Below, in pieces: positions 44,195 through 47,704 of a stretch of 64,000 bases of DNA. The notes below the pieces were generated by a model, which saw only the letters and a list, made by a program, of their open reading frames with translations, searched no databases and was not told where the DNA came from. Numbering within the stretch: the first letter of the stretch is position 1; every line of letters begins with the position of its first letter. Both the position numbers and the translations under genes were made by a program. Source of the stretch: a virus; IMG/VR virus record IMGVR_UViG_3300046011_002684, positions 26,208 through 90,207 of that record. The stretch is one strand, 5' to 3'.

Positions 44195-44635
44195 TTAGAC
44201 AAATCCCCATTCTACATTTGCTTCATTAAAGATACTTTTCGACAACTCCCAAGACTCTGCCCAGCGAGGATTTGTCGGATCGCCATCCATAACCACACGC
44301 TTTACGCCAACTTGGGTAATGCCCAGCGCGCATTGATCGCAGCAAGGAAGTCCAGAAACATAGATCGTAGCACCATCTAGCGACACACCATTGTAGGTAG
44401 CATTATAGATCACGTTCTTTTCTGCGTGTACGATATACTTATACTTGAGCGAACGGTCAGTCAGACGTTCGTCTGTGTCTTCGATGTTACGTGGAAATCC
44501 ATTATAACCGGTGCTAAGCACCTGACCCTTTGGGCTAACTGCTACTGCACCAATCTTACTCGACGGATCTTTCGACCAGGTTGCAACCAACCTAGCCATA
44601 TCCATATATCGCTTATCCCATTTATTGATATCCAC
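44195..44635 (-). CDS. cd: dCMP deaminase
   Basis: SKDP...GAV, GYNG.P, HAE.N, PC..C. Confidence 0.92.
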   Translation of the reverse strand: MDINKWDKRYMDMARLVATWSKDPSSKIGAVAVSPKGQVLSTGYNGFPRNIEDTDERLTDRSLKYKYIVHAEKNVIYNATYNGVSLDGATIYVSGLPCCDQCALGITQVGVKRVVMDGDPTNPRWAESWELSKSIFNEANVEWGFV

Positions 44636-44768
44636 TTGTAGCTACTCCTCCTAATGCTATAGCAAACACTGCTATCATCCCGCCGAATGCGACTGGCTCT
44701 TTCTTAAATTCTTCCCTTTCAGCTGCGCATCCAGCCAATAATAGTAATAGTACCACAGCTTTAGACAA
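44622..44768 (-). CDS. Small lipoprotein/membrane peptide
   Basis: TTG start; LLLLLAGC lipobox; second hydrophobic segment. Confidence 0.45.
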   Translation of the reverse strand: MSKAVVLLLLLAGCAAEREEFKKEPVAFGGMIAVFAIALGGVATSGYQ

Positions 44769-46089
44769 TTGTATACTCCATTGATCTGAATAGTCGATCC
44801 ATCGCAATCCTATGTTCCATTGGATTAGTACGAATAGCACTTGTTTTCAATGGATGTTTGTCACGATTTAGGATTTCTGGTGGCACGATATCGGCAAATG
44901 TTTGCTTCAGTACTTTCTTTTCGCCATTACGTTCTACGTATGGTGTATTCATTGCATGCTTACAGATCGATGGTGCAAGGAACGGGCAACGAGTCTCGAT
45001 CGTGTATCGCATCATAGTACGATCGATCTTAGGCATATGGTAGTATGGTAGTTCGCAGAACATATCTGACATTTGGCTATCATACTCTTTGGCACGGCGA
45101 TATCCACCAAACAGTTCATCAGCACCGTCACCAGTCATAACTGCATAAAAGCCAAGCTCACGTAGCTTCTTAGCCATAGCAATCTGTGGCTTAACCGAAC
45201 CTAGATCGACAGGCGACTGGTGTACGATCAATGCTTCATAGTCAGACACATCATTAAGCCGAACGTGGTGCATGGTGTCACCAAGATGCAATGCGAGGTT
45301 AGCAAAGCCTTTCTCGGCATTGTCGACGTGAACAGCAGTGACTTCACGACCAAGTTGCTTGATCAGACCATAGATGATAGTGCTATCTAGACCGCCAGAG
45401 AGCAGCACAGCTACTTCACGTTGACCACCAAGACGAAGCTCAGTAGCTTTCAACAGATCAGTGCGCAAGTCAGTGCACGAGACTTTGTTCCAATCCCAGT
45501 ACTCGTACACTGCTCCACGATAGTAGTAGTGACCAGGTGGGATCTGTTTAATCTCATTCCATGGAGTACGTGCATCAGGAGAATATCCCCATTTCATAGT
45601 GTTCGACATAAACACTTCGTCACGAGTAGTATGGCCAAGAGGAATTAGGATATCAATCTCAGATGCCAAAGCTTCCATATCAGTACGGTAATAGATTGGC
45701 TTCTGGCTCAGATAGTCAGTAGCTGCAATGATGTTTGCACCGTATGTGGTAACGAATGACCAGAAGCCGTCGAACTGGTGGAATGCATTAAAGAGTTTAT
45801 CATCTTTCCAAAACTCTTCGATAGCACATTCGATGTCAGTCTCGTAGCCGAGTTCTTTATAATTGAAAATCTCACCAACGAAGAGTGCAGGCGGATTACT
45901 ATTGATTGGCTGGATACAGACTGCTGGATCCAGATTAACAAACGGTAGACTGTAGTGGGCAAACTGCATTTCATCTTTGTGACCGAAACGCAGATAACCT
46001 TTGTAGCCAGGTAGGCCACGATAGCTCATATGTTCAATGAGTTGGCTAAGATCTTGTGGCAGATCCTTACCAGCAATAAATCCACACAT
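44761..46089 (-). CDS. Asparagine synthase (glutamine-hydrolysing)-like amidotransferase
   Basis: N-terminal MCG Ntn nucleophile, GEIFNY, KPIYY, LSGGLDS PP-loop, TGDGADELFGGY, ETRCPFL. Confidence 0.9.
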   Translation of the reverse strand: MCGFIAGKDLPQDLSQLIEHMSYRGLPGYKGYLRFGHKDEMQFAHYSLPFVNLDPAVCIQPINSNPPALFVGEIFNYKELGYETDIECAIEEFWKDDKLFNAFHQFDGFWSFVTTYGANIIAATDYLSQKPIYYRTDMEALASEIDILIPLGHTTRDEVFMSNTMKWGYSPDARTPWNEIKQIPPGHYYYRGAVYEYWDWNKVSCTDLRTDLLKATELRLGGQREVAVLLSGGLDSTIIYGLIKQLGREVTAVHVDNAEKGFANLALHLGDTMHHVRLNDVSDYEALIVHQSPVDLGSVKPQIAMAKKLRELGFYAVMTGDGADELFGGYRRAKEYDSQMSDMFCELPYYHMPKIDRTMMRYTIETRCPFLAPSICKHAMNTPYVERNGEKKVLKQTFADIVPPEILNRDKHPLKTSAIRTNPMEHRIAMDRLFRSMEYTIV

Positions 46090-46090
46090 A

Positions 46091-46831
46091 TTATACTCCT
46101 ATTAGTTTGCCGAGGGCAAATCGATCATTCTCGAAGCAGTGTAAGCTAGTACTCGAGAAATGTAAATAGCCAACTTGCGCATCAATGCCACTTTGGTCAA
46201 TCATCCATTGTGTAAGACGATTGGCAAAGTATAGATCATTATGTAGGTGTCGCACGACGTCGCACGAGCGCATGTGATACGAACAGTGTAGTTGTCCACC
46301 ACGTTCCATAAAGTGCCAACCGAACGAGCACGGTACACGTTCGCCTTGGTTAGCTGCTACGATATCTTCAGGAAACCACATAGGAACATAGCACTGACGC
46401 GTGGTGCTATCTTTTCTCAGTAGCTCTACAGCATCACCAAGGTTACCAGTCTTGAACCGAATGCCATCCATACTCGGTGCCCACATACGTTCTGGATACG
46501 AATGCGAGAATGCTTCTTGGTTCTTAGACAGATACTTCTCTGTATCTTTGAGCCACATAGTATGAGAAGGCGGTGGATTCAGAGGAATCCCGCCTGTACG
46601 TTCGTCGAAGTGTATGTCTGCCCATGGTTGTGATGCACCGAGCTCATATGATGCATGATTACTATCAGCATACATCGGTGCTACTAGATCCGCGTGAAGA
46701 ATCTCCAGGAAGATAGGCGGAGAGGTCGTACCCTGCCAACTTCCGGTTTGTATCTGATAACCTTGATGATACAATAACCTGCGAAGGTTCTTCAGACCCT
46801 CTGCTAGTGTTCGACCTGATACTCTGTTCAT
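46091..46831 (-). CDS. Thymidylate synthase homolog, dCMP hydroxymethylase-like (cytosine-specific)
   Basis: TRQ, catalytic PC, MRSCDVVRHLHND (Asp at the TS Asn177 position, as in T4 gp42 RSNDVVFGFRND), SLHCF. Confidence 0.75.
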   Translation of the reverse strand: MNRVSGRTLAEGLKNLRRLLYHQGYQIQTGSWQGTTSPPIFLEILHADLVAPMYADSNHASYELGASQPWADIHFDERTGGIPLNPPPSHTMWLKDTEKYLSKNQEAFSHSYPERMWAPSMDGIRFKTGNLGDAVELLRKDSTTRQCYVPMWFPEDIVAANQGERVPCSFGWHFMERGGQLHCSYHMRSCDVVRHLHNDLYFANRLTQWMIDQSGIDAQVGYLHFSSTSLHCFENDRFALGKLIGV

Positions 46832-47231
46832 TACTAACCCTTTCTCTCAATCCAGATGAAGAGAACCTATGGTTCCTCTTATTATAATAAATGTCAATGC
46901 CAAGCTGTCTACATTCTTCTTTACCAGTAAAGTCTTTGAACCTATACTCTTCGCCAATAATACGAATGTTGATTGGATACATCTGTAGAATATCTATTAG
47001 ATCTGCCTCAGTATGATACGGCACAATCTCATCCACATAGCTGACAGCTGCCAACTGGGAGTAACGTTCTACAATTGTTTGCACTGGCTTATTCTTTTCT
47101 ATTCTATCAACAGATGGGTCGATCTGTAAACCACAAATTAGATAGTCGCACACACTTTTTGCTTCGCGGAGCATAGCAATATGCCCCGCGTGCAAAAGGT
47201 CGAAGGTGGAAGCAGTAAATCCTATTTTCAT
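46665..47231 (-). CDS. Glycerol-3-phosphate cytidylyltransferase (TagD)-like protein
   Basis: STFDLLHAGH, LICGL, K.KPVQ...ER, YVDE, FSSS.LRERV; tail overlaps the next gene by 167 nt. Confidence 0.85.
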   Translation of the reverse strand: MKIGFTASTFDLLHAGHIAMLREAKSVCDYLICGLQIDPSVDRIEKNKPVQTIVERYSQLAAVSYVDEIVPYHTEADLIDILQMYPINIRIIGEEYRFKDFTGKEECRQLGIDIYYNKRNHRFSSSGLRERVSNEQSIRSNTSRGSEEPSQVIVSSRLSDTNRKLAGYDLSAYLPGDSSRGSSSTDVC

Positions 47232-47488
47232 TAAATGCTATCGTATTTCTTTTTCCATGCGCTGCCACTGGTACGAAGTCCTTCGGAAGCAAGCAGTTGT
47301 TGATACATAATCCGAACCACCTCATTGCGGTTCGGAGCGTTCTGGATATCACGGATGGTCTGTGCCTTCGCAGTCTTCTGACCCATAGTGCGAACCTCAC
47401 GCTTACTTACCATTTCAACAGAAGCAGCCTTTGCTTCTTCGAAAGGGAGAGTCTCGAGCGATTTAACAAAAGCTTGATATTCCATCAT
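47231..47488 (-). CDS. Early hypothetical protein
   Basis: Coupled within the early operon; GAGG SD. Confidence 0.65.
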   Translation of the reverse strand: MMEYQAFVKSLETLPFEEAKAASVEMVSKREVRTMGQKTAKAQTIRDIQNAPNRNEVVRIMYQQLLASEGLRTSGSAWKKKYDSI

Positions 47489-47640
47489 TTGAACATTTCC
47501 TCTTTTAGTTCGACGAAGTATTGTGCGCCGAAGGCGACCCCCGAAGCATCAAAAAGATCTTCGAGGATCATTTTAACGGTCGCCCAAGTACCGAAGGAAT
47601 GGGTTTCAACGATCTGCTGAATCATCTTCTCTTTGGTCAT
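47485..47640 (-). CDS. Small early protein, 51 aa (not in ORF track)
   Basis: GGGAG SD after an early promoter; MTKEKMIQQIVETH... Confidence 0.6.
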   Translation of the reverse strand: MTKEKMIQQIVETHSFGTWATVKMILEDLFDASGVAFGAQYFVELKEEMFK

Positions 47641-47664
47641 CTTGTATCTCCCTTTGATAGGAGT

Positions 47665-47704
47665 AATATAAGACTTTACTTTTGAAATGTAAACCCCCTA
47701 TTTT
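47665..47704 (-). promoter_or_regulatory. Early sigma70-like promoter driving the TagD/TS/AsnB operon
   Basis: AAAATAGGGGG-TTTACA-N17-TATATT. Confidence 0.8.

Follow-up and report, generated by a model that had tools for sequence, protein, structure and literature searches.

We describe a gene cassette that probably makes a previously undescribed nitrogen-bearing cytosine for phage DNA, as judged from the genes that it contains. The cassette lies at positions 44195–47704 of a 64-kb stretch of DNA (the window) taken from the 90,207-base IMG/VR virus record IMGVR_UViG_3300046011_002684, for which CheckV estimates a completeness of 51%. Its conserved core consists of a thymidylate synthase (TS) homolog, an amidotransferase resembling asparagine synthetase B (AsnB-like), and a deoxycytidine monophosphate (dCMP) deaminase. 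The source phage is T4-like: its UvsX protein shares 76.9% identity with the UvsX of Phage C48C1 and 59.6% with that of Acidovorax phage ACP17, and the cassette region is flanked by the genes for the gp43 polymerase (50737–53256) and uvsX (42285–43346). The same or nearly the same DNA occurs in 18 sequencing runs, 17 of which are labelled lake water; five of the 18 are a possible source of the record, and the other 13 come from 13 studies that may belong to one campaign. No RNA run was listed for the region, two RNA-labelled runs containing only 7% of its words, and megablast of the region against cultured phages returned no match.

An earlier reading of the window, made from the letters and open reading frames (ORFs) alone, had arranged two small ORFs, a TagD-like gene, the TS homolog, the AsnB-like gene (after a 1-nt gap) and the dCMP deaminase in one operon. 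All of these genes were found where the sequence-only reading had placed them, on the minus strand. The TS homolog (46091..46831; PF00303, 29.0 bits against a cut-off of 24.3) ends 1 nt before the AsnB-like gene (44761..46089; PF00733, 102 bits), whose product has the N-terminal sequence MCG and a PP-loop, SGGLDS. The deaminase gene (44195..44635; PF00383, 72.2 bits against a cut-off of 25; phrog_174, E 1e-44) encodes both zinc motifs of its family, HAE and PCxxC, as VHAEKN and PCCDQC.

The TS homolog and a profile built from 27 family members were aligned to solved TS structures, without gaps from the RSCD motif onward. In HMMER alignments with the enzymes of E. faecalis and E. coli, Asp199 occupies the position of Asn177, Asp191 that of Asp169, and Cys168 that of Cys146. 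The PC(S/T)F and RSCD motifs align gap-free with PCH and QRSxD, which contain the catalytic Cys146 and the phosphate-site Arg166/Ser167. These active-site motifs, Asp191 included, are invariant in the 27 relatives, and Asp at position 177 is conserved in T4-like, cultured siphophage, jumbo-phage and remote-cassette members. In an AlphaFold model of the protein (pLDDT 77.6), the top fold matches were the CMP hydroxymethylase MilA and the dCMP hydroxylase AfhB of phage HY126, and Foldseek gave a probability of 1.00 for these and for many TS chains. The PF00303 score above the gathering threshold, the TS fold, the catalytic Cys and the Arg/Ser pair thus place the protein in the TS/dCMP hydroxymethylase superfamily.

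Within this superfamily, Asp at position 177 is associated with dCMP enzymes and Asn at position 169 with 5-hydroxy-dCMP synthases (PMC13326640). Because the window protein carries Asp199 where ThyA specific for deoxyuridine monophosphate (dUMP) has Asn, and because it retains Asp191 where the 5-hydroxy-dCMP synthases have changed Asp to Asn, its sequence reads as that of a cytosine-type (dCMP) enzyme and not a 5-hydroxylase, which supports the earlier assignment to cytosine. The same source ties an acidic residue at the Leu143 position to hydroxymethylation (PMC13326640); in the window protein, ungapped counting across a loop of insecure alignment puts Arg165 there, with Glu164 adjacent. Candidate folate-site motifs (FLEILH, SYPERMW and PWAD, for Glu58, Tyr94 and Trp80) are invariant, but were spotted by eye in a region where the alignment is unreliable: when the family profile was aligned to a canonical ThyA from a jumbo phage, first globally and then locally, the N-terminal half could not be placed reliably.

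The phage also has another source of thymidylate (dTMP), as the sequence-only reading had noted. A flavin-dependent thymidylate synthase, ThyX (39169..39858, minus strand; PF02511, 141.9 bits), is encoded in the window and in both complete T4-like relatives, and canonical ThyA stands alongside the Asp177-type TS in three jumbo-phage records. Since ThyX or canonical ThyA is present in the same genomes, the TS homolog is not needed for dTMP. Its nearest named relatives, at 30–43% identity, are proteins annotated as 'thymidylate synthase' in actinophages and in Serratia, Yersinia and Pseudomonas siphophages. No deoxycytidylate hydroxymethylase was named among the 60 listed of 63 PDB sequences matched (E up to 1), so that kinship with T4 gp42 was not found at this level. 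In one complete 430-kb jumbo phage (L312/L313; G008:C1:396526-398403), the Asp177-type TS is a single 637-aa ORF, interrupted after the catalytic GERVPC by an insert of ~370 residues that starts CFTGE and looks like an intein.

A high-confidence model of the AsnB-like protein (pLDDT 92.3) can be superposed on E. coli AsnB over both domains (1ct9; TM 0.74). Its score against the asparagine synthase model TIGR01536, however, was 163.7 bits, well under the cut-off of 267.1. The family is viral, in that its atlas clusters are labelled Viruses, and it is large, with more than 120 clusters at ≥55% identity, 185 representatives (50% clustering) at E < 1e-30, and relatives encoded in ~470 IMG/VR stretches. 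Among 185,579 species genomes, the best identity of any cellular relative was at most 31%; among cultured phages the best identity was at most 29%, and none carries the family.

To compare active sites, we aligned 82 T4-like and 83 remote AsnB-like sequences and numbered them after the human enzyme, ASNS (PMC6748925). In ASNS, Arg-48/49 and Asn-74 belong to the glutamine site, Glu-364, Asp-367, Asp-400 and Lys-466 belong to the synthetase site, and an acidic cluster binds the amino group of aspartyl-AMP (PMC6748925). The N-terminal Cys is present in 163 of the 165 aligned sequences and the PP-loop Ser and Asp in all of them, and the counterparts of Asp-367, Glu-368 and Lys-466 are kept throughout. 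Two synthetase-site positions are altered without exception: the counterpart of Glu-348/364 is Asp, and that of Asp-384/400 is His, in 165/165. At the glutamine site, the remote clade keeps Arg in 78/83 and Asn in 77/83 sequences, and the window protein has Ser47 and Val71 in place of Arg-48/49 and Asn-74. Judged by its sequence, the protein is thus an AsnB-type adenylating amidotransferase, rather than an ordinary asparagine synthetase or a captured cellular gene.

The three core genes are tightly linked in T4-like phages. IMG/VR loci anchored on the TS homolog contained the AsnB-like gene in 57 of 60 cases and the deaminase in 56 of 60, and where a gene was missing the contig stopped within ~180 nt of TS or inside the AsnB-like gene. 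New loci anchored on the AsnB-like gene contained TS in 63 of 69 cases and the deaminase in 66 of 69, the misses being cut by contig ends within ~180 nt of the anchor gene. Wherever an IMG/VR locus was long enough to reveal them, all three genes occurred side by side. After removal of redundancy, 84 loci remained, in which we counted the AsnB-like gene 82 times, the TS homolog 80 times and the dCMP deaminase 70 times, ahead of MazG-like (44), Nmad1-like (42) and N6/N4-methylase-like (26) genes, a short dehydrogenase-like gene (22), a small UDG-superfamily gene (20) and a TagD-like gene (18). In 69 of 78 cases from these loci, the TS stop codon falls between −19 and +7 nt relative to the point where the AsnB ORF begins (ORFs were started at the first start codon, so small TS/AsnB overlaps may be overcalled), and eight loci have inserts of 419–2286 nt between the two genes. 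Both genes are present in the complete genomes G001, G002 and G008; neither is present in the complete sister phages C48C1 and ACP17. The T4-like loci are kin, and these counts alone could reflect inheritance.

The sequence-only reading had proposed co-occurrence of the Asp-type TS and AsnB across phages as a check, and this co-occurrence extends far beyond the local synteny of T4-like genomes. In a non-T4 phage (locus L065), a compact block contains MazG, a ~115-aa Nmad1-like protein, TS, AsnB and the deaminase, flanked by helicase, resolvase and primase-polymerase genes upstream and a terminase gene downstream. In two other loci (L144 and L145), the gene for an AsnB-like protein ~35% identical to that of the window is accompanied, in another gene order, by TS and deaminase genes together with one for a dUTPase_2-type pyrophosphatase and one or two C5-methylase-like genes, and here too the TS homologs have Asp at position 177. 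Among 80 further remote loci, drawn from a scan re-ranked towards remote AsnB-like members and not counting the three just named, TS was found within 6 kb in 14 and the deaminase in 4. The neighbors of remote TS/AsnB pairs include a nucleoside triphosphate (NTP) pyrophosphatase, a kinase-UDG fusion, ThyX, a trimeric dUTPase, and N6/N4- or C5-methylase-like genes. The fusion joins a dNK/thymidylate-kinase-like P-loop domain to a UDG-superfamily domain (L261:259-1170; also L255 and L258).

The surroundings of the core suggest how it might work. T4 converts deoxycytidine (dC) to hydroxymethyl-dC by means of the dCTPase gp56, the dCMP hydroxymethylase gp42, the deoxynucleoside monophosphate (dNMP) kinase gp1 and the deaminase cd (PMC13326640). 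The T4-like replication module of the window phage likewise holds four such enzymes, namely a pyrophosphatase of the all-alpha NTP type, a TS-fold enzyme carrying Asp at 177, a kinase resembling gp1 and a dCMP deaminase, and here too dTMP is left to a separate enzyme. The pyrophosphatase is a MazG-like protein and a candidate dCTPase (50045..50470, minus strand; PRA-PH, E 1.3e-9; phrog_671); the kinase (DNMK; 37150..37680, minus strand; PF21448, 28.9 bits against a cut-off of 27.1) has 60%-identical homologs in both complete T4-like relatives. Both genes had been named in the sequence-only reading as enzymes that could phosphorylate the modified nucleotide and remove dCTP, and both are present. 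Unlike T4, the window phage has a TS that is not a gp42 relative by sequence, an AsnB-like gene inserted between TS and the deaminase, and no GT1/GT2 glycosyltransferase that we could find.

We give an even chance to a scheme in which dC is replaced before replication by a modified cytosine, through a T4-style pathway extended by one ATP-dependent step that forms an amide or amine. The MazG-like pyrophosphatase would convert dCTP to dCMP, and Cys168 of the TS-fold enzyme would attack C6 of dCMP so that a one-carbon substituent is placed at C5. The AsnB-like enzyme, translationally coupled to TS, would then turn the C5 substituent into an amide or amine, consuming ATP at its PP-loop and taking nitrogen from a donor. 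We infer that it works on the mononucleotide because its neighbors encode kinases, pyrophosphatases and a deaminase. Phosphorylation of the product to the triphosphate would fall to the gp1-like kinase together with host enzymes, and incorporation to gp43; the dCMP deaminase would send part of the dCMP to dUMP for ThyX. From the gene identities, active-site signatures and co-occurrence that we observed, we infer every catalytic step, the order of the steps and a product, of which a cytosine of the 5-aminomethyl or 5-carboxamide type is an example; sequence does not reveal the final base, as the sequence-only reading had already said. Formation of an amide on a modified cytosine of phage DNA by an asparagine-synthetase homolog has a precedent in CmoY (PMC12783734). 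As candidate chemistries, a 5-methylene or 5-hydroxymethyl group might be trapped or replaced, giving 5-aminomethyl-dC, or a 5-carboxyl-type group might be amidated to a carboxamide. Speculatively, the N4 amino and C5 carboxyl groups of 5-carboxycytosine are spaced like the amino group and beta-carboxyl of aspartate, which would fit the acidic cluster that the AsnB-like protein has kept.

Several observations weigh against this scheme. The modified product is a prediction from the genes. To our knowledge, the characterised AsnB-family enzymes all adenylate a carboxylate, and we know of no TS-type product that carries one. The acidic cluster of human ASNS is kept as Asp321, Asp324 and Glu325, and for this reason the substrate may yet be aspartate-like. 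Neither the glutamine-site Arg nor the Asn occurs in the T4-like clade (0/82 for each, with Ser/Ala and Val instead), and because of these replacements the use of glutamine by the window enzyme, and with it the nitrogen donor throughout the clade, is doubtful. The linkage also has gaps. Of the 83 remote loci, 64 come from one jumbo-phage lineage in which a thymidylate-kinase-like P-loop gene (phrog_761, E 8e-5) precedes the AsnB-like gene and TS is missing within 6 kb. Only 4 of 25 records from this lineage (G008, G010, G012 and G031) yielded a member of the TS family, 67–113 kb from the AsnB-like gene, the TS-negative records being mostly 30–59% complete; TS was also not found in G009 (85% complete) or G011 (73%), nor in the ~148-kb records G018 and G021 at the distance seen in G031. 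Conversely, cultured actinophages and Serratia and Yersinia phages carry the TS family without an AsnB-like gene. Because so few jumbo-lineage records contain the TS family, we do not claim that the TS-AsnB link is obligate.

The retention of so much of asparagine synthetase raises the question of whether the AsnB-like enzyme is simply an auxiliary asparagine synthetase, riding along in phages that make an ordinary T4- or XP12-type base (5-hydroxymethyl-dC or 5-methyl-dC). The full two-domain fold shared with 1ct9, the PP-loop, the counterpart of Lys-449/466 and the acidic cluster would all suit such an enzyme, as would the separation of its gene from TS in the jumbo lineage. However, the gene recurs with TS in varied gene orders and phage backbones, and its neighbors are always nucleotide enzymes. 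The invariant changes at the synthetase site (Asp-400 to His and Glu-348/364 to Asp), the absence of both glutamine-site residues, Arg and Asn, from the T4-like clade, the score below the curated asparagine-synthase cut-off and the want of a close cellular relative all point the same way, and we consider this explanation unlikely, if worth keeping in mind. A quite unlikely alternative is that the TS has a separate function and the AsnB-like enzyme acts after replication, amidating on DNA a carboxyl-bearing cytosine made by another enzyme. There is a precedent in CmoY, an asparagine-synthetase homolog that ligates glycine to 5-carboxymethylcytosine in DNA, and a second, uncharacterised CmoY-like cluster has a glutaminase domain (PMC12783734). 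C5-methylase-like genes are indeed present in seven remote cassettes, but no PF00145 gene was found in the window record or in four T4-like relatives, two of them complete (G000–G004 in all), and the methylase-like proteins of L144 and L145 carry GHPEC instead of the SPPC that defines CmoX. The neighboring kinases and pyrophosphatases, moreover, are mononucleotide enzymes.

The constancy of the TS-deaminase pair could also be read without any DNA modification, as a two-step path that leads from dCMP through 5-methyl-dCMP to dTMP, or as another means of balancing nucleotide pools. The Asp177-type TS and the deaminase are the most constant pair that we found, including in cultured siphophages that have no AsnB-like gene. 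This reading has a slim chance of being correct, since ThyX or canonical ThyA in the same genomes would make a second route redundant, and the AsnB-like enzyme and MazG-like gene would be left without a role. Finally, the PP-loop domain might adenylate a ring carbonyl, as GMP synthetase does, and so convert a 5-substituted dUMP to the corresponding dCMP or aminate C2 of the pyrimidine. PP-loop enzymes that adenylate nucleobase carbonyls do exist, and the PP-loop region has weak Pfam and NCBIfam matches to QueC, MnmA and a relative of argininosuccinate synthase. Amination at C4 would be unnecessary, however, as Asp at 177 means that the TS already acts on cytosine, and the co-encoded deaminase would create a futile cycle. 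We know of no member of the AsnB branch with this activity, and we regard it as very improbable.

The cassette shares features with several known systems without matching any of them. With CmoA/CmoX/CmoY of Synechococcus phage S-B43 it shares a phage asparagine-synthetase homolog, there forming an amide on a C5-substituted cytosine (PMC12783734). In that system, the partner is a C5-methyltransferase homolog that works on DNA with carboxy-S-adenosylmethionine (PMC12783734), whereas here it is a TS-fold mononucleotide enzyme, and the T4-like genomes have no C5-methylase. S-B43 itself was not among the listed tblastn matches of the AsnB-like protein; two of the records belong to another Synechococcus phage, S-SCSM1. 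The GHPEC motif occurs in three C5-cytosine-methylase-like proteins inside the remote cassettes (L144:7314-8507, L145:8167-9510 and L145:9543-10829); C5-cytosine methylases usually carry a PC motif. The 5-hydroxy-dCMP synthases of RB69 and DLP3 (PMC13326640) and AfhB of HY126 (PDB 9iqc, 9iqu) resemble the TS homolog in their fold, their substrate dCMP and Asp177, and are among its best fold matches. They differ at position 169, where the invariant Asp191 of the window family shows no change to Asn and the 9iqu chain has Asn. E. coli and human asparagine synthetase B have in common with the AsnB-like protein the two-domain fold, the N-terminal Cys, the SGGxDS PP-loop and the catalytic Lys, but the phage protein is ~110 residues shorter, scores below the curated cut-off and is altered at Glu-348/364 and Asp-384/400.

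A further comparison is provided by a siphophage module (Mycobacterium phage Muddy gp45-47, Gordonia phages, Serratia phage Serbin, Yersinia phage P744) with the same TS family (30–43% identity) and its RSCD..RH..(N/D)D motif. There, TS is likewise paired with a deaminase, a dUTPase-type pyrophosphatase and a thymidylate kinase, but an unrelated protein of 270–350 aa replaces the AsnB-like gene. The order in Muddy, Gordonia phages, KimJongPhill, Serbin and P744 is thymidylate kinase, dUTPase, the 270–350-aa protein, TS, deaminase and DNA polymerase I. Coordinates of the 270–350-aa protein, directly upstream of TS, are L070:3030-3923, L071:2877-3938, L072:3668-4477, L073:3708-4541 and L074:3620-4495 (Muddy, KimJongPhill, Serbin, P744 and Mayweather). 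It proved unrelated to both the AsnB-like and the TS families. The two sequences scanned had no Pfam match, and an alignment of the five found no PDB or profile relative; one record labels the protein 'pyrimidine hmase synthase'.

In our literature search, no paper connected an asparagine synthase or synthetase with a TS homolog in the modification of phage DNA; the search did not extend to the supplementary tables of PMC8670742 (Pfam associations) and PMC12783734 (CmoY network), which may show whether the family has been noticed before. It likewise found no phage paper on aminomethyl- or carbamoyl-cytosine.

The sugar-related genes of the region look like variable cargo, not part of the pathway core. 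The TagD/RfaE-II-like nucleotidyltransferase (46665..47231, minus strand; PF01467, 48.4 bits, residues 8–131 of 188; phrog_7878) is nearer to RfaE domain II (TIGR02199, 75.1 bits vs. a cut-off of 181.5) than to TagD (TIGR01518, 58.7 vs. 165.4); it fails both curated cut-offs and passes only that of the generic domain PF01467. A short protein of 281 aa (43349..44194, minus strand) resembles nucleoside diphosphate-sugar dehydrogenases below cut-off (TIGR03026, 39.2 bits; PF00984, 18.4 bits). We do not count either gene as core because they occur in only 18/84 and 22/84 loci, respectively, and because the compact cassette of L065 lacks both. The TagD-like gene, where present, is accompanied by phosphomannomutase and cupin genes. 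The sequence-only reading had included the TagD-like cytidylyltransferase in the pathway, a role that its scarcity speaks against. The UDP-glucose dehydrogenase of that reading is there as a gene, but its short length and sub-threshold scores leave the name in doubt.

Sugar decoration through these two genes, which that reading had offered in the form of a CDP-activated polyol or uronamide sugar, was set aside as unsupported. Both genes are patchy, and no GT1/GT2 glycosyltransferase was found in the window record or in four relatives, two of which are complete. That reading had also recognised no T4-type glucosyltransferase in the window. For GT1/GT2 this stands; the T4 beta-glucosyltransferase model matched no genome, controls included, and is uninformative. 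A 7-deazaguanine pathway was set aside too. Its candidate gene, for a 233-aa PP-loop protein (49398–50099) with faint QueC, NAD-synthase and Asn_synthase matches, all below cut-offs, occurs in near-identical contigs only, and overlaps the MazG-like ORF by 55 nt.

Comparison with C48C1 and ACP17 marks the gp43-uvsX interval as a site where DNA- or sugar-related cargo is swapped. In C48C1 the interval holds a DNA methylase, a primase, an epimerase and a dehydrogenase; in ACP17 gp43 adjoins uvsX, and 7-deazaguanine genes follow. The Nmad1-like gene is absent from the window genome, where the TagD-like gene occupies its place, and the small UDG-like gene lies at 30298–30657. The last ~55 residues of the TagD-like ORF (167 nt, 46665–46831) extend beyond the domain end and overlap the start of TS in another frame, an overlap of varying length that is seen in relatives too. 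Just past gp43 are two cupin-type oxygenase-like genes (53297–53884 and 55303–55908; Asp/Asn beta-hydroxylase-like and JmjC-like). Some members of the jumbo lineage have, beside the AsnB-like gene but on the opposite strand, a gene for a RimK-like ATP-grasp ligase bearing a Zn-protease-like tail (L295:7431-8921; also L233, L239, L256 and L309). The remote representative P0202 yielded no viral locus, and no fused AsnB-like protein longer than 775 aa was found, which is weak evidence.

Upstream of the TagD-like gene are the two small ORFs (47640–47485, 51 aa; 47488–47231, 85 aa; minus strand). Neither has a Pfam match, and the 85-aa ORF also has no NCBIfam or PHROG match; it recurs in a minority of loci, the 51-aa ORF in near-identical contigs only. 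The sole intergenic gap contains a sigma-70-like promoter candidate (47665..47693, minus strand; TTTACA-17 nt-TATATT, 10/12 consensus match). The early promoter of the sequence-only reading is therefore represented by a plausible site, but a single site is weak evidence because the region contains 19 such sites vs. 13.4 ± 3.2 in shuffles.

In its widest form, our proposal is that a coupled TS/AsnB-like pair acts on dCMP to make a nitrogen-bearing C5 cytosine never described in DNA (5-aminomethyl-dC or 5-carboxamido-dC), that this base fully replaces dC in a large, globally abundant freshwater and marine T4-like group and in unrelated small and jumbo phages, and that the N-terminal Cys domain of the T4-like enzymes works with a changed nitrogen donor. 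We put this forward tentatively, as a possibility that falls somewhat short of likely. Whether the DNA of a phage withstands restriction enzymes, CRISPR and DNA glycosylases depends on its modified bases, and each new base has yielded enzymes for DNA labelling and sequencing chemistry. The product of this cassette would have escaped chemical analysis because no cultured phage carries the AsnB-like family. If the proposal is true, the cassette would join, for the first time, a PP-loop amidotransferase to a mononucleotide enzyme of the TS fold.

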